Source: an uncultured Bacilli bacterium | GTDB taxonomy: Bacteria; Bacillota_I; Bacilli_A; RF39; UBA660 | Direction: 5' to 3' | DNA length: 64,000 nucleotides | Assembly (NCBI GenBank): GCA_947585665.1 | Contig: CANPXE010000001.1 | Coordinates: 13,037-77,036, forward strand | In this document: positions 2,011 to 42,960 of the stretch, in pieces | Position numbering within the stretch: position 1 is the stretch's first letter | Layout: every line of letters starts with the position of its first letter | Notes under the pieces: model-generated | What the model saw: the letters and a program-made list of their open reading frames with translations, nothing else | Database searches by the model: none | Told to the model about the DNA's origin: nothing | Translations under genes and position numbers: made by a program

Positions 2011-3981
2011 TTAAGAGATTTTAAAGAATTTTTCACTAATTCGACGTGCTATTCGCTTATTAGCGTAACTTCTCGAAGACGATGGACTATCGACATAAAC
2101 AATGTTAGGAGAGACAACCGCAATCGTCATTTTCGGCTTGTCAAATGGTGCATAACCGACAAAAGTATTAGTAAGTGTTGCGGTATCAATTACGCCATCT
2201 TTGTTAGTATCCATAAATGATTGACTGGTTCCTGTTTTACCGGCTGGCTCCTTTATAGAACCCATATAATTTTTACCTAGACCATAACTCATAACTCCTC
2301 TAAAACCTTTTTGAATTCTTTTTAAATATTTAGAAGGAAGAGATAACTCATTTAAGACTTTGGGTTCTACTTTTATTAACTCGTCGTTATTGTAATAAGA
2401 TTTTAAAAGATGCGGTTCTAGTCTTTTACCGTTAGAAGCAATGGTCGTTACATACTGTGATAATTGAAGAATGGTATAAGTATCATATTGACCAATGGTA
2501 TAATTCAATAAAAGATCACTGGAATAGTCTTCTCCAACCGTTCCCGCACTTTCAAAAGGTAGATCAATTCCCGTTTTAACACCTAGACCATATTCATTAA
2601 ACATAGAGCGATACGTCTTAAAGACATCTTTTTTAACATTAAACTTTTTATTGTAACTATAATTGAAACCAGCTACTTTAAATGCTGTTTTAAATTGATA
2701 AATATTTGAAGAATACGCTAAAGCATCTAAATCATTAATACGCCCTAGTTTACTCCAAGAACACTTTTTAGGTTTAGAATAAATTTTTATGCAATCGTCA
2801 TACATGTATTCACCAATTTTAATCGCACCTTCTTTATAGCCAACGGACATCGAAGCACCTTTAACAACACTACCAACAGTAAAAGTATCTGTCGCAATAT
2901 TATGGGTGTAATCATATACTTTATAACCTTTTTTATCTTTTACGATTTGCTTTCCACTGATAGCTAGAACTTCTCCAGTATTCGGTTCTTGAATGACGAC
3001 AAAAGCATGATCATAATATTCGGTCTTACCATAGTTTTTAGCGTCAATCAATTCCTCTTTAATGGTTTTTTCTACTTCTTTTTGTAAATTTATATCAATT
3101 GATAAAACAATATCATTACCCCTTTTACCTTCTTCAATCAGTTTTAACTTTTTATTAACAATTTCATATTTGGCTTTTGTCCCCTTTAAAATATCTTCAT
3201 ACTGTTTTTCAATAAAACTCGTTCCAACAACATCGTTTAAACTGTAGCCCTTCTTTAAATATTCATCTTTTTCTTCACTACTAATACTTCCAATATTTCC
3301 TAACAAATCACGAAAAGTATCACCATAAGGATAGACTCTCTCCCAACTATATTTAATGTTAAATCCTCCTAAATTTTCATAATTTTCAACGATGTAAGCA
3401 ATCTCTTTATCAGTAATATTATCATCCTTAATAGCTTTGTCTTCATAGTAATAACCTTTATTCATCAAATAAAAAAGATAGGCAACAACTAAATCATCTT
3501 CTTTAAGTTCCTTTATCGTTTCCGAACTAATTCTTTTTTTCTTTAAATCATAAATATCACTATTAGTAAGTTTTCGACTATCATATAGTTTCCATTCACT
3601 CTCTTCAATTAATTCATCTAATTTATTGTCATCTCTTGCGATTAAAAAGTCTTTTATTTCATCATCAGTCAACTTACTATGATCAACTTTAATATGTTTA
3701 ATTATGTTATAGGCGTAGTCAATTTTCTCTTGATCGTTTAAATTTAAGACATTATTAAAGTAAATTATGGGAATACTCTTATTATCAACTAATAGATTCA
3801 TGTTACAATCATAAATTCTTCCTCTTGGTGTCGATGGTCCTAAAACGACATTATAAGTCATTTTATCAAGTTTTTCACTATAATAGTCACCTTTAATAAT
3901 AATTAAGTAAAAAAGACGTGACAAGATTATTGAAAAAGATAATAAGATGATGACACCTATAAAATTTATTCTCTTTTCCAT
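2011..3981 (-). CDS. Class B penicillin-binding protein (PBP2-type transpeptidase)
   Basis: N-terminal TM anchor, SxxK (SVVK), SxN (SSN) and KTG (GKTGTSQ) motifs. 656 aa. Confidence 0.85.
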   Translation of the reverse strand: MEKRINFIGVIILLSFSIILSRLFYLIIIKGDYYSEKLDKMTYNVVLGPSTPRGRIYDCNMNLLVDNKSIPIIYFNNVLNLNDQEKIDYAYNIIKHIKVDHSKLTDDEIKDFLIARDDNKLDELIEESEWKLYDSRKLTNSDIYDLKKKRISSETIKELKEDDLVVAYLFYLMNKGYYYEDKAIKDDNITDKEIAYIVENYENLGGFNIKYSWERVYPYGDTFRDLLGNIGSISSEEKDEYLKKGYSLNDVVGTSFIEKQYEDILKGTKAKYEIVNKKLKLIEEGKRGNDIVLSIDINLQKEVEKTIKEELIDAKNYGKTEYYDHAFVVIQEPNTGEVLAISGKQIVKDKKGYKVYDYTHNIATDTFTVGSVVKGASMSVGYKEGAIKIGEYMYDDCIKIYSKPKKCSWSKLGRINDLDALAYSSNIYQFKTAFKVAGFNYSYNKKFNVKKDVFKTYRSMFNEYGLGVKTGIDLPFESAGTVGEDYSSDLLLNYTIGQYDTYTILQLSQYVTTIASNGKRLEPHLLKSYYNNDELIKVEPKVLNELSLPSKYLKRIQKGFRGVMSYGLGKNYMGSIKEPAGKTGTSQSFMDTNKDGVIDTATLTNTFVGYAPFDKPKMTIAVVSPNIVYVDSPSSSRSYANKRIARRISEKFFKIS

Positions 3982-7170: not shown

Positions 7171-10125
7171 TTATTTCTTTTTAAAGACAAATAATTTACT
7201 AAATATATAATTAAAAATCATTATTAACACTTGTGTTACAATGGTCCAAATTAGAACCCAAGAATCAGTATTTAGTCTTAAGAGTGTTACAAAGAACCAC
7301 ATTATGACCATTTCCATTACTAAAGTAAGAATTCTTGCTCCAAAGAATTGTACCATTTCTTTTAAAATGTGTTTATTCTTACTATAAAAGACAAACAAGC
7401 GATTAGCAACATAAGCAAATAAAACAGCACAAATCCAAGATATGATAATCGCAACTTGTAGTTCAAAAGCATTTTCAGCATCTAATACTGTAAACAACAA
7501 TAACCATTTAGAACCCAAACTGACAATTGTCGTCAAGACCCCTACGACTAAATAATTAAAGATTTCTTTATACTTATTGTATATTCCCATTACAAATTTA
7601 AAAAATTTAGTTTGCGGATTTTTAATTTCAGCAATCACTTTTTTTATTGTTCCCATAAACACCTCAATTATAAAGAATAGTAAACCTATTAAAGATAAGA
7701 TGATACCTACTTTTTTATAAGGAGATTCATACTTAATTAATACTTCATGATGACCTCTATCGATTTCAAAACCAATAAAATCAACATCTGTATTTATATA
7801 ATTTACTTTTTGATCATCGACATAAATAGTAAATCCTTCATCATAAGGAACTGATAAGTTAAAGTATCCCTTTTCTTTAACATCAATACTACCATATATT
7901 TTATCACCCTTAGTCTTTTCACGATCTAACACAAAAGGACTAATATTTTTAGTTATCTCTTCTATTTTTTCATATTCTAATGTATAAAGTTCAAAGTCTG
8001 AAAGATCAAAATTTCCTTTCGAAAAAGAAATATCTAACTCATCTAAATTGACATTATCTAAAACATATTCAAAATCATAATTATTATTGTTATATTTCCA
8101 TCCCCTACAACTCAATTTATTAGTTTGATCATTAATAGTTATATAAGTATCTCCTACGCCACAACGCTCTTGATAATTCATCTTAAATCTAATCACTAAT
8201 ATTTTATTTTCTAAATTATTATTTATTTTTAATTTGACAAGATTATTATTTTTATCAGAATTAATAATAATATTATTTTCTTTTTCTTCATATGAAATAT
8301 TATTTTCTAGGACTTCATAATCTAAATCAATCTTTTTAAAGACCTTTTCATAATCGCTTTCAATATTATCATCATCAATAATTACATAATTTAAATAAGC
8401 ATATAATTGTTCTGGATAAGGAAGATTTTCATACTCTTTTAAACTCATAACTTTATTTTTAACATATCCTATTGGTAAAACATTTTCATTTTTATAGACT
8501 TTATCTTTATCTTTTTTATAAAAATATGAATCTAAATCATCCGTTACAATATATTTATTACCTAAATAGATATTATAAAACAAATTATTAGTATTTGTCA
8601 TTTGACGATAACTTCGACATAAAATATTGTTACCAATTTTTTGATAATAAAAGTCTTCATAAGGACGTGATTGATTAGAAGAATAAATAGTTGTTCCATA
8701 ATAATCTTCATCATAAACACGGTTAGAACCATTTAAATCTTTATCATAAAGATTAATACGATATGATGAAGAATCTTCTTTTAAAAGATCAACAATTGGT
8801 TCTTCAAATCTATCGTTTAAATCTCTTCTAACTAAATTGTCACCACAATTAAAAGCAATACTAAAAACTAATAGAACTGGCAATAATAAAACATAAAATA
8901 ATGTAAAACTATTCCTTTTATTTAAAAAGTAAAGACAAAGCAAAACTATTGGTAACTCAATAATTAAATCTTCAACTAAAGATGTTCTTATAAAGTATAG
9001 TGACAAAGAACATAAGAAAATAGTTAACATTGAAATAATTGTTACCTTTACTTTTTTAGTAGATACATCTTTTAGAGTATTACCAATCAAAATTATAAAT
9101 AATGGTAATAGTGGAATCAAAGCCTTATATTCAACATATAGTCCCCCATTTAGACAAAAAGTAAAGATGGGAAAAGTAACAATTAAGAAAAGAATTATTC
9201 CTAAAAAGACATTTTCTTTTTTCTTACTAAAGATACTGTAAATAAGACTAAATATGGCAATCGAAGATAGCCCTAAACTATAAGAACTATAAAGAATCGT
9301 CTTAATTGAAAAGTAAGGACGGAATAAAGCAATGATATTAATTGTTTCACTACCAGTAGTCTCACGCCCAATTAAAAGTGAAAAGAAAGTTGGAACAATT
9401 AAGATACAAGATAATAAAACGCCTATAAAAATAGGTATTAAGAACTTGATACCATCTAAGATAAAAGACTTAATCGTAATCTTATCATTCTTCTTTATAT
9501 AACAATATATGCCATAAATAACGATTGATAGAAGACCTCCAACACTATAAAAATAACTTGTCATTATCATTAAAAAGACCGCTATTGTCAATAAGACATA
9601 ACTCTTCTTTTCAAAATACTTTTCAACACCGAAATATCCCAATAAAAGAAATGGAAAATAATTGATAAACATGATGTGACGATGTCCCTGAAAGATAATT
9701 GGTGTTGCCATTAAAAAGATAAAACTACTAATTAAAGCACATTTACTATCCGTTTTCTTCTTCATGAAAAAATACATCATTATCGTACTTACAAGAATAC
9801 AAATAATTGTTGATAGAGAAATAAATTCACGCATTGGTATAAATGGTAACAAATAAGAAATTAAAATAATTGGACTTAAAAAGCCATAATAAGCAAAATT
9901 ATAAATATTTTGACCACTTCCTAAATTAAAAGCAAAATTAGGAAATAAATTATGGTTTTCATAAAAAAGCATTCGAAAATATTCAGGAACAATAGAATGT
10001 TGCTGACTCCAATCCTTAGTTGATCCAAAAAAATAAGTAAATCTCGTTATCGCAAAATAGACGATAAAAAAAGAAATTATTAAAATTATTATGTTTATGA
10101 TATTATGTTTCGTTTCTTTCTTCAT
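7171..10125 (-). CDS. YfhO-family polytopic glycosyltransferase fused to a C-terminal GtrA-like domain
   Basis: About 850 aa with many TM helices and an extracytoplasmic domain typical of YfhO. The last ~130 aa (FNYLVVGVLTT...NRLFVF...SKLFVF) form a 4-TM GtrA-family domain. Start set at the ATG preceded by AAGGAG. Overlaps the upstream gene by 23 nt. Confidence 0.75.
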   Translation of the reverse strand: MKKETKHNIINIIILIISFFIVYFAITRFTYFFGSTKDWSQQHSIVPEYFRMLFYENHNLFPNFAFNLGSGQNIYNFAYYGFLSPIILISYLLPFIPMREFISLSTIICILVSTIMMYFFMKKKTDSKCALISSFIFLMATPIIFQGHRHIMFINYFPFLLLGYFGVEKYFEKKSYVLLTIAVFLMIMTSYFYSVGGLLSIVIYGIYCYIKKNDKITIKSFILDGIKFLIPIFIGVLLSCILIVPTFFSLLIGRETTGSETINIIALFRPYFSIKTILYSSYSLGLSSIAIFSLIYSIFSKKKENVFLGIILFLIVTFPIFTFCLNGGLYVEYKALIPLLPLFIILIGNTLKDVSTKKVKVTIISMLTIFLCSLSLYFIRTSLVEDLIIELPIVLLCLYFLNKRNSFTLFYVLLLPVLLVFSIAFNCGDNLVRRDLNDRFEEPIVDLLKEDSSSYRINLYDKDLNGSNRVYDEDYYGTTIYSSNQSRPYEDFYYQKIGNNILCRSYRQMTNTNNLFYNIYLGNKYIVTDDLDSYFYKKDKDKVYKNENVLPIGYVKNKVMSLKEYENLPYPEQLYAYLNYVIIDDDNIESDYEKVFKKIDLDYEVLENNISYEEKENNIIINSDKNNNLVKLKINNNLENKILVIRFKMNYQERCGVGDTYITINDQTNKLSCRGWKYNNNNYDFEYVLDNVNLDELDISFSKGNFDLSDFELYTLEYEKIEEITKNISPFVLDREKTKGDKIYGSIDVKEKGYFNLSVPYDEGFTIYVDDQKVNYINTDVDFIGFEIDRGHHEVLIKYESPYKKVGIILSLIGLLFFIIEVFMGTIKKVIAEIKNPQTKFFKFVMGIYNKYKEIFNYLVVGVLTTIVSLGSKWLLLFTVLDAENAFELQVAIIISWICAVLFAYVANRLFVFYSKNKHILKEMVQFFGARILTLVMEMVIMWFFVTLLRLNTDSWVLIWTIVTQVLIMIFNYIFSKLFVFKKK

Positions 10126-25509: not shown

Positions 25510-25586
25510 TGGTCGGGAAGACAGGATTTGAACCTGCAACCCCCTGGTCCCAAACCAGGTGCTCTACCAAGTTGAGCCACTTCCCG
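25510..25586 (-). tRNA. tRNA-Pro (UGG)
   Basis: Hand-folded cloverleaf with anticodon arm CCTGG-TTTGGGA-CCAGG. Encoded CCA, 77 nt. Confidence 0.9.
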
Positions 25587-25589
25587 AAG

Positions 25590-25666
25590 TGGTGCGCTCG
25601 AAGGGATTCGAACCCCTGACCTTTTGGTTCGTAGCCAAACACTCTATCCAGCTGAGCTACGAGCGC
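25590..25666 (-). tRNA. tRNA-Arg (ACG)
   Basis: Anticodon arm TTTGG-CTACGAA-CCAAA. Acceptor GCGCTCG/CGAGCGC, encoded CCA. Confidence 0.9.
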
Positions 25667-25706
25667 ATGATTACGATTTAGTTTTAATAATAATCGAAAA
25701 AATAAA

Positions 25707-25782
<76 letters not shown>

Positions 25783-25785
25783 ATA

Positions 25786-25861
25786 TGGCGGTCTCGACGG
25801 GAATTGAACCCGCGATCTTCTGCGTGACAGGCAGACGTGTTAACCCCTGCACTACGAGACC
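25786..25861 (-). tRNA. tRNA-Asp (GUC)
   Basis: Anticodon arm TCTGC-CTGTCAC-GCAGA. 76 nt, encoded CCA. Confidence 0.9.
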
Positions 25862-25863
25862 AT

Positions 25864-25940
<77 letters not shown>

Positions 25941-25952
25941 ATAAATTATTAA

Positions 25953-26045
25953 TGGCGGAGGAAAAGGGATTCGAACCCCTGCGCCGCTTTCACGACCTCC
26001 CGGTTTTCAAGACCGGTCCCTTCAACCAGACTTGGGTATTCCTCC
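25953..26045 (-). tRNA. tRNA-Ser (UGA)
   Basis: Anticodon arm CCGGT-CTTGAAA-ACCGG with a long variable arm. 93 nt. Confidence 0.9.
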
Positions 26046-26050
26046 AAATA

Positions 26051-26139
26051 TGGTGCCTAAGGCCGGACTTGAACCGGCACGAGGGTTGAATCTCGCAGGA
26101 TTTTAAGTCCTGTGCGTCTACCAATTCCGCCACTCAGGC
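26051..26139 (-). tRNA. tRNA-Leu (UAA)
   Basis: Anticodon arm CAGGA-CTTAAAA-TCCTG with a long variable arm. 89 nt. Confidence 0.9.
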
Positions 26140-26170
26140 ATGATACACGTCACTTCCACGTGTCTACTTA

Positions 26171-26199
26171 ATTGTATCTTAAAATCCTTTATTAATCAA
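26171..26199 (-). promoter_or_regulatory. Putative internal promoter for the distal seven tRNAs
   Basis: The minus strand reads TTGATT-17 nt-TACAAT inside the 137-bp gap of the tRNA array. Confidence 0.4.
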
Positions 26200-26244
26200 G
26201 CATTTTTTGATTTTTATTATATTTTAAGAACAATTTTTTATAAA

Positions 26245-26263
26245 AGCCCTGATAATCAGGGCT
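26245..26263 (-). other. GC-rich stem-loop inside the tRNA array (weak terminator or processing site)
   Basis: AGCCCTGA-TAA-TCAGGGCT forms a perfect 8-bp stem. On the minus strand only TTTAT follows, so termination is probably partial. Confidence 0.4.
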
Positions 26264-26276
26264 AATACTTCAAAAA

Positions 26277-26352
26277 TGGTGTCCCGTTGGAGATTCGAAC
26301 TCCAGACCCTTTGATTAAAAGTCAAATGCTCTACCGACTGAGCTAACGGAAC
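26277..26352 (-). tRNA. tRNA-Lys (UUU)
   Basis: Anticodon arm TTTGA-CTTTTAA-TCAAA. 76 nt. Confidence 0.9.
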
Positions 26353-26355
26353 AAG

Positions 26356-26430
26356 TGGCTGCCTCGGCTAGACTCGAACTAGCGCATGTCAGAGTCAAAG
26401 TCTGATGCCTTACCGCTTGGCTACGAGGCA
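26356..26430 (-). tRNA. tRNA-Gln (UUG)
   Basis: Anticodon arm TCAGA-CTTTGAC-TCTGA. U1-A72 pair, 75 nt. Confidence 0.9.
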
Positions 26431-26437
26431 ATCTATA

Positions 26438-26521
26438 TGGTGGAGAGAGATGGATTCGAACCATCGAACCCGAAGGAACAGATTTACAGTCTGCCGCGTT
26501 TAGCCACTTCGCTACCTCTCC
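26438..26521 (-). tRNA. tRNA-Tyr (GUA)
   Basis: Anticodon arm GCAGA-CTGTAAA-TCTGT with a long variable arm. 84 nt. Confidence 0.9.
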
Positions 26522-26528
26522 AAATAAA

Positions 26529-26604
26529 TGGTGCCGAAAACAGGACTTGAACCCGTAACCTATTGATTACAAATCAATTGCTCTACCAATTGAGCTATTT
26601 CGGC
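26529..26604 (-). tRNA. tRNA-Thr (UGU)
   Basis: Anticodon arm ATTGA-TTTGTAA-TCAAT. 76 nt. Confidence 0.9.
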
Positions 26605-26609
26605 ACTAA

Positions 26610-26686
26610 TGGTGGGCGATATAGGACTCGAACCTATGACCCCCTGCTTGTAAGGCAGGTGCTCTAACCAACTGAGCTAATCGCCC
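26610..26686 (-). tRNA. tRNA-Val (UAC)
   Basis: Anticodon arm CCTGC-CTTACAA-GCAGG. 77 nt. Confidence 0.9.
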
Positions 26687-33466: not shown

Positions 33467-33488
33467 AAAAGCCAATTGCTCGGCTTTT
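33467..33488. terminator. Bidirectional stem-loop terminator
   Basis: AAAAGCC-8 nt-GGCTTTT with A/T runs on both sides. Lies between the convergent ferredoxin gene and the TasA-like operon. Confidence 0.55.
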
Positions 33489-33544: not shown

Positions 33545-35710
33545 CTAAGGCAATTCTATTTCATATGCCGTTTTTGGTGTTTTTCCATCTCCACTTTTGA
33601 TTATAACATCTGCATTTAATGTAATAGTTGGCTTTACAGCAAAATCATGGTCATATGGTTCTTGAAATATACCTTGAGTTTCTGACTCAAATGCTCCAAT
33701 CATTGGCCAGCTACCATTGCCATATGGAGTCATGGTAGCCGTCTTATAATCATGTACATCATTTCCTCCTAATGGATATGCAAATAATTCACCAACAATT
33801 GGAAGTCCAACATACCCTTTCCATGTTTTATCTGTTTTTACACAATCTTTTGTTGTTTCAGTAGTATTTTTCTCTTTACATATAGTATTTTTATAACTAC
33901 CAATAGTACTATCAGTAGGGACTTTTTGAACATTATCTACATAATAAGTATCTTCAACTAAATATTTTTTTATACCTTGTTGTTCAAGCCATGTGCCATT
34001 TAAATATGCTCCCCAATAAGCTTCATTTTCTGAATTAACAACATCTGCATAACTATGCATACTCATCTCACCAAATTTCTTTGTAATAACATTACCATCA
34101 GAATCTTTTACATAATTAGCACTTTTTAATTTAGTTACAAGTTTTCCTTCTTCTTTATGAGTGTTTACTATACGATATAACATATCGTTAACCATAACAA
34201 GTTCTCCTGGAGTTCTTGTATTTATTTGCTCCCCAGGTTGAGCCGCTTTTATATCATCTAATAAAACAAATGGATCATATTGTGTTCCTGTACCACTAAA
34301 TTTAACATCGGCTTTTAAAACTACCATAGGTCGAACTCCAAAAGCGTTATTTGGCACAGCCCATCCTGTTATTGTTCCATCATAGTGAATTCCAGAAACA
34401 GTTTTAGGAGGATCATTCTGTGGATCAGAATATGATGATAACCACCAAGCATGCCCAAGATTTAAAAAACTATCTTTACTATAACTGGCAGTCTTGCTAA
34501 ATTCGTAAGGATTCATTAAACCAACGGGGGCTTTTGGTTGTTGAAGCGGAGCAACATAGCACCAATCATACCTATTTGATATATCCCAAGTAGCATCTTC
34601 CACTAATATGTTTTTATGATTATATAAAGTATCTAAAAAATCTTCATTTAACCATTGTTTTATATATGAGTCATCAAAGAATCCATTTTCACCAAAGTTT
34701 ATAGCAGATAAAATATTTTCCGAAATCATTTTTACTGATCCATCATTTAATATTTCTGTTATTCTCCACATATAACCCGAATACCAAACATAATTAAAAT
34801 TCAAACAAGCATTAGTCCCCTCAAAATATGTATGATAAGGTGGTGGATCATTAACTCCACCACTACCATTACAAGGTGAATCAGTTGTTAATAACAAAGA
34901 GTCATTACCATTATAATTACATGTTTTTTTATTATCAGCAAGTTCCATAACCTTATCCGCTAAAGTTCTATATTGAACAACGACATCACCTGAAACATTT
35001 TCAACTTGTAAAAGATTATTGTCAAATGTAAACGTTGTATTACTTCCATCAACAAAGACTTTAATATCTTTTTGTAAAAGGTCACCTGGAAATTGAACTT
35101 TTAAAACATCGCCTTCTAAAATTTCTTTAGGGTATTCTTTTGTATTCGTATTAATTAAAAAGTTTGTATACGTTACTGTATGAAATTGTCTAAAATCAAA
35201 ATCAAGAGTTATGTTGTACTGTGAGTTATTAGCATTATATTTATTATCCTTATATTTAATCGTAATATAAATATCTTTTTGAATTCCTGATTTACAAGAA
35301 GACTCATCACATATTTTATCCTTTAAAGAATATCCTTCACCCAATTCGTAATCCAACTCTTCTGGTAAACCAGTTATTTTTAAAATTCCCATTTCAACAT
35401 TACCTAAATTAGTAATTTGTACGCGATATGTAACAGTTGAATTTTTTTCAGGCAAAACTATCCCTGAACTAATACTTTTAACATTATAATCTTCCCAACC
35501 AGAAGCACCTTCATTAGAAGTTCCATCGACACTAACACCTGTAACTCTTATATCAGCTTCTATTCTAACTGTTGCAGCAACATTACCAATTTCCAATGTC
35601 TGTTTAAAAAAAGAATAACCAAGCGAAAGCATAAACACAGAAAAGACTAACAAAGTTGTCGTTAGTCCATAAATATACTTTTTGCCACTATCAGTTTTAT
35701 ACTTTTTCAT
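33545..35710 (-). CDS. Large secreted protein: SipW-type signal peptide, TasA/camelysin-like N-domain, C-terminal modules with W..GVRP motif
   Basis: N-terminus ...FMLSLGYS|FFKQTLEIGNVAAT parallels the TasA signal (..GTWA|AFND..). LPEKNSTVTYRVQITNLGNVEMGILKI parallels TasA LKPGD....F.F.N.GSL. C-terminal AWWLSS...AFGVRPMVVLKADV and ...FAVKPTITLNADV form two modules. Start set at the ATG with a GGAGA RBS. Confidence 0.65.
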   Translation of the reverse strand: MKKYKTDSGKKYIYGLTTTLLVFSVFMLSLGYSFFKQTLEIGNVAATVRIEADIRVTGVSVDGTSNEGASGWEDYNVKSISSGIVLPEKNSTVTYRVQITNLGNVEMGILKITGLPEELDYELGEGYSLKDKICDESSCKSGIQKDIYITIKYKDNKYNANNSQYNITLDFDFRQFHTVTYTNFLINTNTKEYPKEILEGDVLKVQFPGDLLQKDIKVFVDGSNTTFTFDNNLLQVENVSGDVVVQYRTLADKVMELADNKKTCNYNGNDSLLLTTDSPCNGSGGVNDPPPYHTYFEGTNACLNFNYVWYSGYMWRITEILNDGSVKMISENILSAINFGENGFFDDSYIKQWLNEDFLDTLYNHKNILVEDATWDISNRYDWCYVAPLQQPKAPVGLMNPYEFSKTASYSKDSFLNLGHAWWLSSYSDPQNDPPKTVSGIHYDGTITGWAVPNNAFGVRPMVVLKADVKFSGTGTQYDPFVLLDDIKAAQPGEQINTRTPGELVMVNDMLYRIVNTHKEEGKLVTKLKSANYVKDSDGNVITKKFGEMSMHSYADVVNSENEAYWGAYLNGTWLEQQGIKKYLVEDTYYVDNVQKVPTDSTIGSYKNTICKEKNTTETTKDCVKTDKTWKGYVGLPIVGELFAYPLGGNDVHDYKTATMTPYGNGSWPMIGAFESETQGIFQEPYDHDFAVKPTITLNADVIIKSGDGKTPKTAYEIELP

Positions 35711-36911
35711 TTTTATCATTCTCCATATCAACAGCTTTTAACTGAAGTAGATAAACATCATTATTGTTTTTTACATATAAGTAGCATTTTTGATGCTTGG
35801 TAATTTCATAATACATTATTGGTACTTGTAAATTATCATGAACATCTAATAATTCTTCAAACTTAGCAATTTTTATTATATTGCTATTAGAAAAATCAAC
35901 TAATGTTTTACTTTCAACAATTAAACGGTCATATTCTGTCAATAATTTCTTAACATATTTGTCATATGTACTACTTTTAACATGTAACAATTGCAATAAT
36001 TTAATAATTTTAACTAAGAAGTAAATAGCTATTAAAGAAACAACTATTAATAGTATTAAAGATTCATCTGTCAATATTTTCCATCCCTTATTAACCAATG
36101 TTTGAGTAGTTGGTGTAATTTCAACATCAGCAATATCTATAGTAATTGATCTTTTTGATAATGGAATAGTAACGGATATTTCTTTATTTTCACCAAGTTT
36201 TATTTCTTTTTCATTATTACTGTTTTGTTTATGTACAATTAAAGAAACTTTAAGATAACTTACAGTATCCAAACCATTAAGATTTTTAAAATTATTAGCA
36301 ATACTATTGTATTTATCGTAATCTAAAGAAATAGTTTCTTTAATATTGATATCGTTGGCATTTTCCATTTTTTTAGTCTTTTTATCTAATAAATTATAGT
36401 TTTCACTATAAAAGACATTTTTACCATCACTATCAAATATTAATAATTCACCGACTATATTATAATCAAAATCAATATTACTCTTTTTTTCAATATCAAA
36501 ATTATAATTATAATCAATTTCAATTTTATCAATTAAACTAGTAACATAAGCATAATTATGATTATCTAAATCTTGTTTTCCTAAATATTTAAGTCCTGGA
36601 AAAGAGGAATTTGCTTTTAGCCAAACACGATAGTCAGCTACCCCATTTTCGGTATAAGAGACTGTTTTCTCTTTTTGATAACGAATAGAATAATTAAAAA
36701 GTAATGCAACTAATAAAAGACATAAAAGAAGAAAGCAAGAGTTAATAATAAGTCTTACATTATAACTGATATATCTTTTAGGCTTTTCTTCTACTTCAAT
36801 ATTCTTTATCGTTTCTTTTACGGTTTCCTTTTTTACATTTTCCTTTTTTACATTTTCCTTTTTATCATTTTTACTTTTATGATTTTGTTTATTTTTTCCA
36901 GAGTCCTTCAT
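35697..36911 (-). CDS. Two-TM protein, DUF5305-like (signal-peptidase-associated)
   Basis: Lys-rich cytoplasmic N-terminus, TM1 (SCFLLLCLLLVALLF), ~210-aa extracytoplasmic domain, TM2 (LILLIVVSLIAIYFLV), ~100-aa cytoplasmic tail. AGGAGGTG RBS. DUF5305 assignment is from memory. Confidence 0.5.
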   Translation of the reverse strand: MKDSGKNKQNHKSKNDKKENVKKENVKKETVKETIKNIEVEEKPKRYISYNVRLIINSCFLLLCLLLVALLFNYSIRYQKEKTVSYTENGVADYRVWLKANSSFPGLKYLGKQDLDNHNYAYVTSLIDKIEIDYNYNFDIEKKSNIDFDYNIVGELLIFDSDGKNVFYSENYNLLDKKTKKMENANDINIKETISLDYDKYNSIANNFKNLNGLDTVSYLKVSLIVHKQNSNNEKEIKLGENKEISVTIPLSKRSITIDIADVEITPTTQTLVNKGWKILTDESLILLIVVSLIAIYFLVKIIKLLQLLHVKSSTYDKYVKKLLTEYDRLIVESKTLVDFSNSNIIKIAKFEELLDVHDNLQVPIMYYEITKHQKCYLYVKNNNDVYLLQLKAVDMENDKNEKV

Positions 36912-36927
36912 AAAGTTGCACCTCCTT

Positions 36928-38052
36928 CTATAATTCATTTAAAATTACTGTTGGTAAACCAATATATGGAACTTTAACATTAACTACTCCCACAATCATA
37001 TCCTCAGTAATAGGATATCCATCTTCTATTTCATTGGCATCTCCCTTAGTATAGAAATAATCTTCACCATTTACTTCTAGCTTATTGACAAGCCGATGCA
37101 CAATTAAAATATCGTCATATTCGTATGCAATTATTTGTCCGAGTTGTAAATTTTTAGTATTATCAATTTTTTCAATTATGACAACATCACCTTTTTTAAT
37201 CTCTGGAGTCATTGATCCACTAGCAATCGCAACAGCATAATAGTGAAAATAACCAGATGTTATATAAACTAAAAAAGCAATAATTAACCCAGGGAAAATA
37301 AGGGATCCTAATCTTCTTTTAGCTACATCCTGTGTTGGAATAGAACGTCGGTCTTTTTTTAAGAAATTTCCTACTCGATAAGCATAAATGGTTGGTAAAA
37401 TCAATTGTACTACCGAAATTATATATTCATTAGGATTAGGTACAATTGGTATTATATATGAATATATTTGTGTCACAAAAGAATACAACAATACAGGTTT
37501 ATATCCAACCTTATACGTTACATATGATAAAGCAATATTAGTACTTATTGCTGGCAATAATCCCAATGCTAAAAATAAAAAGACATCATAATTACTAGAA
37601 AAAGGAACTAAATATTCACTGGTAAAAACATCAAATAATATAAAAACAATAATTGTTGTTATAATTAATGTTTTACTTCCTTCAGCTTTTCTAATCATCA
37701 TATAACGCAATAATTCTTTTAATGTGACAATTATAATAATTGGCAATAAAAAATTAAATATACCCGAAATAGTAAAATAACTATTTATTTTAGAAAAAGT
37801 AAAGATAATTCCTGATAAATACCACAAAAAGAAAAATATGAGTAAAAATATTAAAGTATCTAATATAATATCTTTTTTATAACGATATTTATCTTTTTCA
37901 TAACCAAATAAAATTTTAAAAAGCAAAGTAAATACTAATAAGATTATTACAAAACGATATTTACCTAATATACTTGATACAAAACTACTTAAAATTAAAA
38001 GTATTGAAAAAAAGATTTGAAAAATTAATAACCTTTTATAACCCTTTTTCAT
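36928..38052 (-). CDS. sipW: SipW/Sec11-type (S26B) signal peptidase I fused to an N-terminal ~8-TM domain
   Basis: C-terminal 125 aa has ASGSMTPEIKKGDVVII (catalytic Ser), ILIVHRLV (catalytic His, ER/archaeal type) and FYTKGDANE. The first ~240 aa are eight hydrophobic helices with no Cys or His. Confidence 0.75.
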   Translation of the reverse strand: MKKGYKRLLIFQIFFSILLILSSFVSSILGKYRFVIILLVFTLLFKILFGYEKDKYRYKKDIILDTLIFLLIFFFLWYLSGIIFTFSKINSYFTISGIFNFLLPIIIIVTLKELLRYMMIRKAEGSKTLIITTIIVFILFDVFTSEYLVPFSSNYDVFLFLALGLLPAISTNIALSYVTYKVGYKPVLLYSFVTQIYSYIIPIVPNPNEYIISVVQLILPTIYAYRVGNFLKKDRRSIPTQDVAKRRLGSLIFPGLIIAFLVYITSGYFHYYAVAIASGSMTPEIKKGDVVIIEKIDNTKNLQLGQIIAYEYDDILIVHRLVNKLEVNGEDYFYTKGDANEIEDGYPITEDMIVGVVNVKVPYIGLPTVILNEL

Positions 38053-38117
38053 TCTATTCCTCCTAAATAGTCTTGTGCAAAAATATTAAGAAATAATATC
38101 TCAATATTTTCATCTTA

Positions 38118-38780
38118 TTAGCCAGCGTCACTAGAGCTGTAATTTAATGTAATCGCACCAAAATTAACAGTGAAGTCACCATCAGCTCTTTCTGCATCTG
38201 GTTTATATGTTAAAGTTACAACAACTTTTTCATCTGTCTTCTTAGCTAGTTTTTGTTCAGTTATACTAGCTACTGTTGATGTTGCAGTATTATGGCTTCC
38301 AACTTCTACTTTTAACTCAAATCCTTTACAAGCTTTTTCTACCAATGCAGGTGTTGTTGTAGATAATGCTTCACATTTTATGTTACTTGTTTCATCTACA
38401 TTAGAGTAAATGATTGATTTCAAATAAGCATCATATTCACCATCATTTCTTACAAAAAACTCATATTTAATAGATTGTCCTGGAGCAGTAAACGTCCCAC
38501 CGATATTAGTGATAGTCTTATCATCACTAATAGTTGCTTGATTTCCTGAAAAGCCGTCAACTTCACCTGGCGTTACCTCTGGAGTAACTTCTCCTTTTTC
38601 GACTTTACTTGCAGTTGTCGAAAATTTAACAGCAAATGCACTATCACTTGGGTTTACTGTACTACTAGATGCATTTATAGTTAGTTGACTAGTGAAAGCA
38701 GCAAATCCAACTGACAAACCGACAATTGCAACTACCAAAGCAATAACAGCTATAACTTTTGTTCCTCTATCTCTTTCCAT
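38118..38780 (-). CDS. TasA/camelysin-like secreted protein with SipW-type signal peptide
   Basis: MERDRGTKVIAVIALVVAIVGLSVGFA|AFTSQLTINASS mirrors TasA ...GTWA|AFNDIK. FTAPGQSIKYEFFVRNDGEYDAYLKSI matches the TasA-fold PG....F.....N.G motif. AGGAGG RBS. Confidence 0.65.
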   Translation of the reverse strand: MERDRGTKVIAVIALVVAIVGLSVGFAAFTSQLTINASSSTVNPSDSAFAVKFSTTASKVEKGEVTPEVTPGEVDGFSGNQATISDDKTITNIGGTFTAPGQSIKYEFFVRNDGEYDAYLKSIIYSNVDETSNIKCEALSTTTPALVEKACKGFELKVEVGSHNTATSTVASITEQKLAKKTDEKVVVTLTYKPDAERADGDFTVNFGAITLNYSSSDAG

Positions 38781-38816
38781 ATTTTCACCTCCTCTATCTT
38801 AATTATATCTAATACA

Positions 38817-38846
38817 AGTATACCCCCCCCAATTCAATTGTGTCAA
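38817..38846 (-). promoter_or_regulatory. Putative promoter of the TasA-like/SipW operon with a G8 tract in the spacer
   Basis: The minus strand reads TTGACA-caattgaattGGGGGGGG-TATACT with an 18-nt spacer. About 35 nt of leader precedes AGGAGG and ATG 38780. Confidence 0.55.
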
Positions 38847-38873
38847 CAAATTATACATATACAAGTGTAAAGT

Positions 38874-38903
38874 AAAAAAATGAATCATTATAATAATGAA
38901 TCA
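38874..38903 (-). terminator. Terminator after rluB
   Basis: The minus strand reads TGATTCATTA-TTA-TAATGATTCA (9 of 10 bp paired) followed by TTTTTTT. It overlaps the rluB stop codon. Confidence 0.6.
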
Positions 38904-39620
38904 TTTTTCTTTAGCTAAAACATACAATTTTGAAATCTCTTTATGATTTAATTTACGATATTCTCCAGAATTTAATCCCTTTAAATCAAGAAAAGCTATT
39001 TTTTCACGTTTTAATTTTAAAACTTCTTTACCAATACTTTCAAACATTTTCTTTACTTGATGATTCTTACCTTCATGAATAATTAATTCAACGATTGAAG
39101 TATTAGTACTCTTATCAATTTTTTTAACTTTAACTCTCGATTTAGAAGTCATTACCCCATCAATAATAACTCCATCTTTAAGTTGCATAATTTCACTTGG
39201 CGAAAGAATTCCTTTAACTTTGGCAACATACACTTTATCAATATTATTTTTAGGATGCATCATCATATTAGCGAATTCACCATCATTTGTTAATATTAAA
39301 GCCCCTGTCGTATCATAGTCAAGACGTCCAACCGGATAAATTCTTTTGGTTTCTCCAATTAATGACACAACTGTTTTACGGCCATGCTCATCATTAGTTG
39401 ATGTAATAACACCTCTTGGTTTATTTAATAAATAATAGACTTTTTCTTCACGACTTATAATGGTATCATCAACTTTGATCTCATCTTTTTCACTTACTTT
39501 AACACCTAACTCTGTAATTATTTCACCATTTACTTTAACTCTTTTATTTAAAATTAATTCTTCTGCTTTACGACGCGATGCCACTCCACTTTCCGCAATA
39601 ACTTTTTGTAAACGTTCCAT
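38901..39620 (-). CDS. rluB: RsuA/RluB-family pseudouridine synthase with S4 domain
   Basis: MERLQKVIAESGVASRRKAEELI (S4 domain) and GRLDYDTTGALILTNDG catalytic motif. Confidence 0.85.
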   Translation of the reverse strand: MERLQKVIAESGVASRRKAEELILNKRVKVNGEIITELGVKVSEKDEIKVDDTIISREEKVYYLLNKPRGVITSTNDEHGRKTVVSLIGETKRIYPVGRLDYDTTGALILTNDGEFANMMMHPKNNIDKVYVAKVKGILSPSEIMQLKDGVIIDGVMTSKSRVKVKKIDKSTNTSIVELIIHEGKNHQVKKMFESIGKEVLKLKREKIAFLDLKGLNSGEYRKLNHKEISKLYVLAKEK

Positions 39621-39671
39621 AAAATCACCTAGGCATATTATGGCATAATAACTTATCTTTTTCAAGAATGA

Positions 39672-40824: not shown

Positions 40825-42960
40825 TTACATGTCAGTAATAGTTGGATCAGTTGGAACAGGTATACTACCATCAGGTTTAGGTATTTCTACTTTAGAGAAA
40901 CCAATTTTATCATCGATACCTTCCATCATATCATCAAAGTCAAAGTCGTCAATAACAGGATTAACATCTAATGGATCAACATTATCTAAACTTAAATCGT
41001 ATAAAGAACTTGTATCACCAGATGTCATCATATTTTCCATAGAAGGATCATTCTCTAAAACATTAGAATTTAGTTCGGCAACACCTGTGTCTGTAGTAGA
41101 CTCTGTTACAGTATCAGTTACAGCTGATGTAACATCAGAAGTTACATCACCAGTTTCAGTAGTTGGTGCTGTACTTACATTTTCTCCTTCACCAATGTCA
41201 GGAATCTCTACATGATTATTATCATCAGTAAGAGGTTCTTCTTCTGGTGCAGGATTTATTGTATCACCTTCAATAGTTCCAGGATCAGTTGTTTCTGGTG
41301 GTTGAACATCACCATTTGCATCAGGAAGTGGATTTCCTTCTTCTGGTGCAGGATTTATTGTATCACCTTCAATAGTTCCAGGATCAGTTGTTTCTGGTGG
41401 TTGAACATCACCATTTGCATCAGGAAGCGGATTTCCCTCTTCTGGTGCTGGATTTGTTGTATCACCTTCAACAGTTCCAGTATCACCTACTTCTGGTTGT
41501 TGAACATCACCATTTGCATCAGGAATTGGTTCCGTACCATCAGCATTTGGTTCAGTAACATTTGAATCACCAGTTTCCTCAGGTGGTGTAAATGTATCTT
41601 CACCAGTATCTATTTCAGGTTCTGGAACTTCTCCTTCGTCATCTGGCACAGCTTCCCAATCACTTTCTCCTCCTATTTCTGGCTCAGGTTCAGTTGTACC
41701 TGGATCATCTGTAGGTGGTGTTTCTTCTGGTGGTTTTTCTTCAGGCGTTTCTGAAGGTTTCTCTTCAGGATTTTCGGTAGGTGGTGTTTCTGGTTGAGTT
41801 TCTTCAGGCTTTACAGCAGGTAGTGGATCTGGTTGTTGAGTTGGCGATGGATTAGTACCACCACCAGAAGGATTTGATGGCGGTATATATCCTATATTAT
41901 TAGATGTACCTCCAGCACTTGTATCATTTTTTTCAGAATCAGAAGATTCTTCTTCATTTGTCTCATCTTTTTTGTTTTCTTCTATCATAGAAAGAATTAT
42001 AGCGCTATTTAAGCCAGGGTATTTTTTTATTAAATCATCATACTCAGTGAGTGTGCTCCACCTATCACTATCGTCATCTTTTATATATTTATTATAAAAC
42101 GACATTACATCATTTTTAAATTCTTCTACTTCTTTTTCATCTAAAAAATAATAATAATAATCAAATTTCTTATCATCGTCAATATCATCTAAATCATATG
42201 AACCACCTGTTAAAGTATAAATATCACTATCAGTCTTAAGAACTAGATTAATAATATCATCAAATGTTAATATATAAGAGCTTAAATTCTCACTTGCTGT
42301 ATTAGCCGTATTAGATATTGCTGTAGAATATTGAGTAATTTCACCACATGTCATTCTATCTGCAGAATCTTTTATATTTAAAAGATTAGAAGAAATTTTA
42401 CTACATTCACCTTTTATATTTAAAAGAGTTGATTCTGTAGTATCTCGAATAAGAAAATCTTTATCTGCTAAAGCAACTACTTTACCTGTTTCAAAACTAA
42501 CACTAGGAAATTCATCTAACTGTTCAGCAATTTTTAATGCATCAAGTTCTCCTTGTGTCTTAGGTGTTAGTTCTGGTGGTTGTTGAGGCATCCTCACTCC
42601 AAGATGTTCATTTGCATAGTTGCACTGTTGGTAATATGTATTCCATGCAGAACACAAAGCATCCCATTCATCTTGTAAAGTTTGATCATCTACTGGAACT
42701 ATTTGATTTACTGTGGACACTATATTACTACAACAACTTGCAATATTCCCTAAAGTATCAGAACCCAAAACATTATCAATTTTACCTATAATTTCATTAA
42801 TTTTATCATAACCTAATTCTGTATGCCACTCATTACCCAAATCTCCTATGTATTCAGTCAACGTACCATTTATAGTAGATATGTCTTCAATATAACCTTT
42901 TATATTTTCTAATTCGTTTTTAATAGTTTTAAATTCATTTTTTGTAACTTTCCTTTTCAC
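40825..42960 (-). CDS. Acidic Pro-rich 711-aa protein; candidate T7SS substrate with WXG-like N-terminal helical domain
   Basis: GTG start after GGAGG. N-terminus ...LTEYIGDLGNEWHTELGYDKINEI... is paralogous to the 43162..43812 product. The centre and C-terminus are P/E/T/D-rich with 33-aa tandem repeats. No signal peptide or TM. Confidence 0.6.
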   Translation of the reverse strand: MKRKVTKNEFKTIKNELENIKGYIEDISTINGTLTEYIGDLGNEWHTELGYDKINEIIGKIDNVLGSDTLGNIASCCSNIVSTVNQIVPVDDQTLQDEWDALCSAWNTYYQQCNYANEHLGVRMPQQPPELTPKTQGELDALKIAEQLDEFPSVSFETGKVVALADKDFLIRDTTESTLLNIKGECSKISSNLLNIKDSADRMTCGEITQYSTAISNTANTASENLSSYILTFDDIINLVLKTDSDIYTLTGGSYDLDDIDDDKKFDYYYYFLDEKEVEEFKNDVMSFYNKYIKDDDSDRWSTLTEYDDLIKKYPGLNSAIILSMIEENKKDETNEEESSDSEKNDTSAGGTSNNIGYIPPSNPSGGGTNPSPTQQPDPLPAVKPEETQPETPPTENPEEKPSETPEEKPPEETPPTDDPGTTEPEPEIGGESDWEAVPDDEGEVPEPEIDTGEDTFTPPEETGDSNVTEPNADGTEPIPDANGDVQQPEVGDTGTVEGDTTNPAPEEGNPLPDANGDVQPPETTDPGTIEGDTINPAPEEGNPLPDANGDVQPPETTDPGTIEGDTINPAPEEEPLTDDNNHVEIPDIGEGENVSTAPTTETGDVTSDVTSAVTDTVTESTTDTGVAELNSNVLENDPSMENMMTSGDTSSLYDLSLDNVDPLDVNPVIDDFDFDDMMEGIDDKIGFSKVEIPKPDGSIPVPTDPTITDM
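41236..41532. repeat. Three tandem 99-bp repeats inside the 711-aa gene
   Basis: Period of 99 bp, verified at three landmark positions (GGTGC at 41250, 41349, 41448). Copies 1 and 2 are nearly identical, and copy 3 has diverged. Each encodes EEGNPLPDANGDVQPPETTDPGTIEGDTINPAP. Confidence 0.9.

Follow-up and report, generated by a model that had tools for sequence, protein, structure and literature searches.

Does a run of eight Gs lying between the -35 and -10 hexamers of a promoter act as a phase-variation switch for the operon behind it? The question is raised by a 64-kb stretch of DNA (28.6% GC; hereafter the window) from an uncultured gut member of the Bacilli of the RF39 group. RF39-like Bacilli are abundant, uncultured and genome-reduced. 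Our literature searches retrieved no description of such tracts, or of phase variation, in RF39-like gut Bacilli; in the papers they listed, phase variation in gut commensals is mostly reported as invertible promoters (invertons) in Bacteroidales. On the basis of the sequence comparisons reported here, we propose that the G8 tract is probably a slippage-driven contingency switch in the promoter of a four-gene surface-fibre operon.

A poly-G tract in the spacer of the best candidate promoter

Ahead of the operon, the minus strand reads, in order, TTGACA (38846-38841), caattgaatt (38840-38831), GGGGGGGG (38830-38823) and TATACT (38822-38817), the C8 run of the plus strand at 38823-38830 being the G8 run of the minus strand. 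This candidate promoter, P1, is therefore TTGACA-18-TATACT and matches the consensus at 11 of 12 positions in a consensus scan. The G8 fills 8 of the 18 spacer positions, an arrangement that reproduces the homopolymer-between-hexamers feature of porA/opc/vlp-type promoters. Downstream of TATACT, the minus strand continues with tgtattagaTATAATtaagatAGAGGAGGtgaaaatATG and then with the ATG at 38780, a Shine-Dalgarno sequence (AGGAGG, 38788..38793, minus strand) being located 7 nt ahead of this start codon. The initial annotation, which placed a G8 within an 18-nt TTGACA/TATACT spacer and reported no second G/C run longer than 5, agrees with the sequence on both points: among the G/C runs of at least 5 nt in the window, twelve have a length of 5, none a length of 6 or 7, and a single one, the G8, a length of 8. 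Between 0.04 and 0.05 runs of at least 8 nt are expected per window (analytic estimate from base or dinucleotide composition). The window contains 15 promoter-like sites matching the consensus at 11/12 positions or better, compared to 7.5 +/- 3.1 in shuffled sequences, and the host uses canonical -35/-10 promoters. For an 8-nt tract placed at random, the probability of falling entirely inside the spacer of one of these 15 sites is ~0.0024. The position of the tract in a promoter spacer is thus confirmed as a real feature and not a product of chance.

P1 had also been called the only plausible promoter of the operon. No other site in the 120-nt intergenic region ahead of the operon reaches 9/12, but the same region contains two perfect TATAAT hexamers devoid of a good -35 (38855-38850 and 38807-38802), which makes P1 the best candidate rather than the only one. 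The second of these hexamers, P2 (38802..38807, minus strand), lies 15 nt downstream of the tract and is conserved in L012, the orthologous locus of a related species described below. From its sequence, it may belong to the 5' UTR or be an alternative promoter consisting of a -10 only, whose -35 position would fall in the tract; as a -10-only element, it could serve as a promoter independent of P1 spacing. However, P2 has no conserved -35 (TTGggg in the window, CCGggg in L012). Read as TTGggg-19-TATAAT, with the tract partly in the -35, it was judged less likely and ranked below P1, because its TTG is lost in one strain lineage of the same species (lineage C, see below) and absent in L012 while the P1 hexamers are conserved.

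The upstream neighbour of the operon, a pseudouridine synthase gene (38901-39665, minus strand), ends in an AT-rich hairpin followed by U7 (38868..38913, minus strand; -12.9 kcal/mol, z = -2.85). As this terminator-like hairpin closes the upstream gene, the operon needs a promoter of its own, within about 38862-38800. In the Rfam search, the tRNA cluster alone was matched and no leader RNA element was found in the leader or intergenic region; the leader is also without a stable fold (z = 0.36), and an RNA element in this region was rejected on these two grounds. A G-quadruplex reading of the tract was rejected as well: it is a lone G8 run, and one G8 run cannot make an intramolecular G-quadruplex. 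A CACAATT sequence overlaps the P1 -35.

Gene content of the operon

The four genes behind P1 are all encoded on the minus strand. The first (38118..38780) encodes a 220-aa secreted protein, the presumed major fibre subunit, in which a hydrophobic helix at the N-terminus and a GFAAFT motif are combined with a beta-sandwich body; its AlphaFold model (pLDDT 82.5) comprises the N-terminal helix and the beta-sandwich. The product of the second gene (36928..38052) is a 374-aa protein with a multi-TM N-terminus and a C-terminal signal peptidase I domain of the SipW/archaeal type (Peptidase_S24/S26; TIGR02228, 84 bits). A hydropathy count gives about 8-10 hydrophobic segments before and around the peptidase domain, and the match of this protein to the SipW model is weak (62 bits, under the cut-off). 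The third gene (35697..36938) encodes a 413-aa DUF5305 protein with two TM segments (PF17231, 30.7 bits for a cut-off of 29), presumed to be a signal-peptidase accessory. The last gene (33545..35731) encodes a 728-aa protein whose N-terminal signal is similar to that of the subunit and which is presumed to be a minor subunit, a tip or an adhesin; it has no Pfam match, and its N-terminus resembles that of an 805-aa protein located behind a decayed poly-G cassette in a related contig (L124). The operon presumably ends at an intrinsic-terminator-like hairpin with a T-run (33467..33488, minus strand), 57 nt past the last gene. The 66-nt gap between the subunit and peptidase genes contains a 13-bp AT-rich hairpin (38079-38111, minus strand; -13.4 kcal/mol, z = -2.1), which may be a partial terminator setting the subunit:machinery ratio, as in pilus operons.

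The description of this operon as TasA-like, made in the initial annotation, stands for the gene context and fails for the subunit itself. As in the Bacillus subtilis tapA-sipW-tasA operon, a small secreted subunit gene is found beside a gene for a dedicated SipW-type signal peptidase. In loci for AbpX/TasA-like donor-strand fibrils, minor or tip subunits are encoded together with a multi-TM SPase I (about 10 TM in AbpX-type loci) and a DUF5305 accessory protein with two TM helices (10.64898/2026.01.04.697558), and the window likewise possesses a multi-TM SPase I (about 8-10 hydrophobic segments by hydropathy count), a two-TM DUF5305 protein and a presumed tip or minor subunit. By contrast, the 220-aa protein has no detectable TasA match in sequence or fold: (i) it matches no Pfam or NCBIfam family, TasA/camelysin included, at E <= 0.01, (ii) a profile of 29 homologues found no TasA chain among PDB sequences, and (iii) Foldseek of the model against the PDB gave no match at E <= 1e-3 and no TasA entry among the best 50. 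Membership of the TasA/camelysin family (Peptidase_M73) was therefore rejected by Pfam, NCBIfam, the PDB profile and Foldseek. The AbpX structures 9SJ2 and 9RHP are also outside the best 50 Foldseek matches of the subunit, in a PDB copy that may lack both. If the protein is cut after GFA, the presumed processing site, the mature N-terminus would be AFTSQLTIN, with an aromatic residue (F) at position 2 and a non-acidic one (S) at position 4. Judged by gene context only, the four-gene operon has the gene set of TasA/AbpX-like fibre loci. The tasA gene is controlled by the regulators SinR and AbrB and is not known to be under the control of a repeat tract.

Poly-G tracts in the promoters of related species

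We wondered whether related loci carry comparable tracts. A family-profile scan of a genome collection returned 80 loci, from MAGs assigned to uncultured gut 'Bacilli', 'Mollicutes', 'Tenericutes', 'Mycoplasma sp. CAG:877' and 'Candidatus Faecisoma'. Most of these loci have an ordinary promoter (TTGAAA, an A-rich spacer and TGnTATAAT). Among the upstream regions of tract-less human-gut relatives (L006-L082), many have an A7-A9 run directly past the -35 (TTGATA-A9 in L029, A9 in L024, A8 in L031). The L012 operon is syntenic with that of the window (54% identity for the subunit, 66% for the peptidase and 73% for the DUF5305 protein), and its promoter reads TGTTGACA-taatcgtcc-G9-TACAAT. The -35 is the same TTGACA as in P1 and the -10 stands at an equal distance: the non-G part of the spacer is one nucleotide shorter and the tract one nucleotide longer, giving 9+9 = 18 in L012 and 10+8 = 18 in the window. 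In the nearest relative, L005 (62% subunit identity), the promoter has decayed to TCGACA...GGGGGatgag.

In contigs from the rabbit and the human gut, genes for paralogous secreted proteins are preceded by a related cassette, TTGACC-Gn-7 nt-(TG)nTATTAT, whose tract is G8, G9 or G10. This cassette occurs in L083, in L089-L093 and in 15 human-gut contigs, and also ahead of the paralogues P0123 and P0124 in other genomic contexts. L083 has two tandem paralogues, each behind ..CCACAATT..AAAAAACTTGACC-G9-t(t/a)(a/t)(g/a)TGATATTAT, and in these cassettes the spacer is 16 nt long and the -10 extended. The two L083 paralogues (L083:2960-4681, Lapin-030 bin25) are 227 and 236 aa long with near-identical N-termini, their G9 tracts being at 3083-3091 and 3916-3924; in the same contig, the sequence just upstream, at about 2960-2985, resembles what would be left of a third copy at its 3' end (..LTYSSSDS*), and a DUF5305 gene is located at 59-1105. 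The tract is G9 in 6/7 of the rabbit-gut cassette copies. Among the 15 human-gut copies recovered by the metagenome scan, 3 have G8, 8 have G9, 1 has G10 and 3 are interrupted; most precede a near-identical signal (VDKTRNKIFVGCLALLLVMVAGYALFSQNL..) followed by hypervariable bodies of 231-256 aa. The Vlp-like trait of several paralogues each with a tract-bearing promoter is thus present in L083 and in the human-gut contigs, and absent in the window: no paralogue and no second tract were found in its 64 kb, which hold one family gene and one tract.

In seven contigs (L125, L152, L163, L176, L180, L193 and L206), a conserved cassette of ~150 nt comprises a CCACAAG box, A7, TTGACC, G8-10, TACATGATATTAT, the leader and the signal peptide VDKTRNKIFVGCLALLLVMVAGYALFSQNL. 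L180 and L193 have a common upstream flank and different gene bodies, a pattern that, from the sequences, suggests recombination between family members. Several human-gut cassette contigs end inside the conserved 5' region. The cassette is also found ahead of unrelated secreted or membrane proteins of 318 aa (L162:10-1148) and 190 aa (L190, minus strand, cassette at 932), and L124 (minus strand, cassette at 8638) has an interrupted version, GGGGGAGGGG, ahead of the 805-aa protein mentioned above. Two further G9 runs are differently placed: one lies inside an ORF near its 5' end (L054:8188-8196; MLRKINKLANSTHGGGHNPLQNK..), the position expected of a frameshift-type switch, and the other is found at the beginning of a membrane-protein ORF or immediately ahead of it (L032:448-456), where the reverse complement reads TTGAC-C9.

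Cassette copies from the same locus differ at the tract. In the 1035 nt shared by L091 and L089, there is one mismatch, and L091 lacks one G of the tract (G8 vs G9); L152 and L176 have no mismatch over 508 nt and carry G8 and G10, respectively; in the control comparison, L093 vs L092, there is one T6/T7 indel. Interrupted, decayed tracts are found in L005, L124 and L152, a state to be expected once a contingency locus has been locked. Across 618 kb of related loci (26.6% GC), G/C runs of at least 6 nt are limited to four of length 6 and five of length 9, and 3 of the 5 G9 runs fall in promoter spacers of the family. In the window and L012 the tract adjoins the -10, whereas in the TTGACC cassette it adjoins the -35; this difference in position therefore favours a function of tract length over a position-specific binding site.

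These data bear on the view that the tract is a neutral slippage hotspot with little or no effect on expression, either because the promoter lies elsewhere (for example at the TATAAT of 38807-38802) or because spacers of 17-19 nt are tolerated. This view draws on the conservation of the perfect TATAAT of P2 in L012 and its proximity to the tract, and on the tract-less relatives, whose -10 (TGnTATAAT) is similarly spaced from the GATAGGAGG ribosome-binding site. However, unselected runs of G8-G9 are unexpected at 26-29% GC (about 0.04 per 64 kb) and would decay by interruption, whereas the tract has been kept at the same promoter position between species whose subunits share only 54% identity, and it is retained in over 15 paralogous cassettes. 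In addition, TTGACA and TAnAnT are exactly 18 nt apart in both species though the non-G part of the spacer differs, and P2, as noted above, has no conserved -35. We therefore consider a neutral hotspot unlikely.

Tract length differs between strains of the same species

Exact-protein look-ups in ENA and Logan assemblies yielded eight contigs that belong to the same species as the window, to which they are 99.4-99.8% identical; a metagenome query with the window's own flanks (TTGACACAATTGAA-N6-16-TATACTTGTATTAG) gave no match. Three strain lineages were defined from shared SNPs. In lineage A (the window, L001 and L003), the end of the spacer reads ..gaaTT-G8 and the spacer is 18 nt long. In lineage B (L095 and L098, from two different projects), it reads ..gaaTT-G9, which brings the spacer to 19 nt. 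Lineage C (L002 and L004) has ..gaaT-G9, the T at 38831 being replaced by G, and retains an 18-nt spacer. Two more lineage-B contigs break at the tract: L096 begins exactly past it and L097 begins 3 G inside. Over the 25.9 kb aligned, the only indels are the two at the tract, and the A7/T7 runs, used as a control, gave 0 indels in 42 comparisons. The tract is the sole length-unstable site of the aligned region and its allele differs in each strain lineage. The flanks are identical between the G8 and G9 alleles of lineages A and B; in these sequences, the tract thus varies by whole repeat units between samples. All tract lengths given here, those of the related cassettes included, come from consensus sequences of low-coverage (about 4-8x) short-read assemblies, which inform on differences between samples only; at this level, the tract varies by whole repeat units between otherwise identical sequences. 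Inspection for length heterogeneity, advocated in the initial annotation and made here on other assemblies, yielded G8 and G9 alleles with spacers of 18 or 19 nt, in keeping with phase variation; the lack of polymorphism that the annotation named as a ground for refutation was not observed.

The alleles follow the strain lineages (G8 in A, G9 in B and the T>G version of G9 in C), and this distribution fits rare mutation as well as fast switching. The substitution at 38831 in lineage C, where the tract is G9 yet the spacer is still 18 nt, suggests either that selection acts on the length of the spacer as a whole or that a base was misread where the tract begins. The contig breaks of L096 and L097 are only suggestive of switching within populations.

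Could the length differences be sequencing or assembly artefacts, the tract being fixed and static, as a rigid under-wound G:C block or a regulator site setting promoter strength? Poly-G is error-prone on Illumina, the contigs are built from short reads at low coverage (about 2-8x), and the breaks in L096 and L097 may reflect read drop-out. The G9 shared by 6/7 rabbit-gut copies also agrees with a static tract, and this near-constancy among paralogues might mean that the tract is kept at a set length for another reason. Nevertheless, TT-G9 was obtained from two independent projects (ERR14656587 and DRR848767) and G8 from three assemblies, and G8, G9 and G10 all occur in the human-gut cassettes, with a 2-nt difference in 508 otherwise identical nucleotides. 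A static binding site is further at odds with a tract that sits by the -10 in the window and L012 and by the -35 in the other cassette. An artefactual or static tract is, in our view, decidedly improbable.

A model for spacer-length switching

Taken together, these data support the phase-variation reading put forward in the initial annotation, because the tract occupies the spacer of the best promoter match, varies between samples and is kept in orthologous and paralogous promoters; the allele differences and the recurrence of G8-10 spacer tracts in relatives make a contingency switch likely at the level of sequence. In such a switch, slipped-strand mispairing at replication would add or remove one G, and the -35 and the -10, 18 nt apart at present, would come to stand 17 or 19 nt apart and in another rotational phase. 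All four genes of the operon (subunit, signal peptidase, DUF5305 accessory and large tip-like protein) would then be transcribed more, less or not at all, in a heritable yet reversible manner. The promoter would be of the sigma-A type, with P1 presumably the promoter in use, and switching within a population would presumably be frequent. A 17-nt spacer is presumed to be the strongest, an 18-nt spacer intermediate, and a 19-nt spacer weak or off. The consensus spacers mostly miss the 17-nt optimum by one nucleotide, with 18 nt in the window and L012 and 16 nt in the other cassette. This would mean either that expression is usually intermediate or, as a speculation, that a G:C block displaces the optimum. 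An alternative is a rheostat acting through a regulator or DNA topology, in which the tract would set how an upstream activator or repressor site, or a UP-like A/T element, is phased with respect to RNA polymerase. Such an effect has been proposed for the T-tract of H. pylori sabA, and PMC4081817 is a precedent of the rheostat type. The related cassette, with a conserved CCACAA(G/T) box and an A7 run ahead of its -35, and the window, with CACAATT over its -35, would suit this reading. We nevertheless consider it very unlikely, as the tract is inside the core spacer in every case seen, altered hexamer spacing is the simplest consequence, and the window shows no regulator gene linked to the operon.

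Comparison with known phase-variable promoters

Homopolymer tracts in promoter spacers were invoked in the initial annotation as a classical switch of other bacteria, and the mechanism is established for porA, hifA/B and vlp (PMC3899988, PMC10502178). In Neisseria meningitidis porA, a poly-G tract lies between the -35 and the -10, and the gain or loss of one nucleotide alters transcription (PMC3899988). The window equals porA, and also opc and fetA, in architecture and presumed mechanism, a G/C homopolymer being placed between the hexamers of a surface-protein promoter. It differs in its host, an uncultured AT-rich member of the gut Bacilli/Mycoplasmatota, and in its target, a four-gene fibre operon, whereas porA is a single gene for an outer-membrane protein in a Gram-negative pathogen.

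The vlp genes of Mycoplasma hyorhinis, each turned ON or OFF by a homopolymer (poly-A) in the promoter region (PMC10502178), belong to phylogenetic neighbours of the window organism; in M. mycoides Vmm, TA repeats are found in the spacer. Like vlp, the relatives of the window have a multigene family with a conserved promoter cassette and signal peptide and a hypervariable mature part. Unlike vlp, the tract is poly-G in a 28.6% GC background, the signal is of the SipW type without a lipobox, so that the products are not lipoproteins, and the window gene is single-copy and heads an operon. Simple repeats in promoters also govern surface filaments, with TA repeats for Haemophilus influenzae hifA/hifB and poly-C for Bordetella pertussis fim2/fim3 (PMC3899988), and the window shares with both a simple promoter repeat, upstream of presumed surface-filament genes in its case. 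It is unlike hif, where a dinucleotide repeat is located in a bidirectional promoter. In fim2/fim3, the tract is positioned between the activator site and the -10.

The mechanism is thus classical and known; what is new is the lineage, the type of target operon and the wider family of poly-G promoter cassettes. Extending the argument to this family, it is quite possible, if short of probable, that gut Bacilli of the RF39/'Mycoplasma sp. CAG' type carry genome-wide poly-G contingency cassettes (~80 nt, with a CCACAA box, an A-run, TTGACC, G8-10 and an extended -10), which would independently switch hypervariable SipW-processed fibre subunits and other surface proteins. This would amount to Vlp-like antigenic or adhesive variation in walled commensals, the operon of the window being a single-copy version linked to the assembly machinery.

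If the tract works as a switch, expression of a TasA/AbpX-like surface fibre would be diversified through replication slippage, with a bearing on adhesion, biofilm formation, immune/IgA evasion and phage-receptor variation. Short-read assemblies break at the tract, and tract length is a read-level marker of population state that can be mined in existing metagenomes.

Other features of the window

A 711-aa acidic, proline-rich protein with tandem repeats (PDANGDVQPPETTDPGTIEGDTINPAPEEGNPL) is encoded at 40825-42960 on the minus strand. Nearly all SNPs between the window and L001-L003 cluster in its repeat region (41185-41400), with 11-27 differences in ~220 nt, which reflects either repeat recombination or assembly collapse. 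Finally, 12 tRNA genes are clustered at 25513-26686 on the minus strand.
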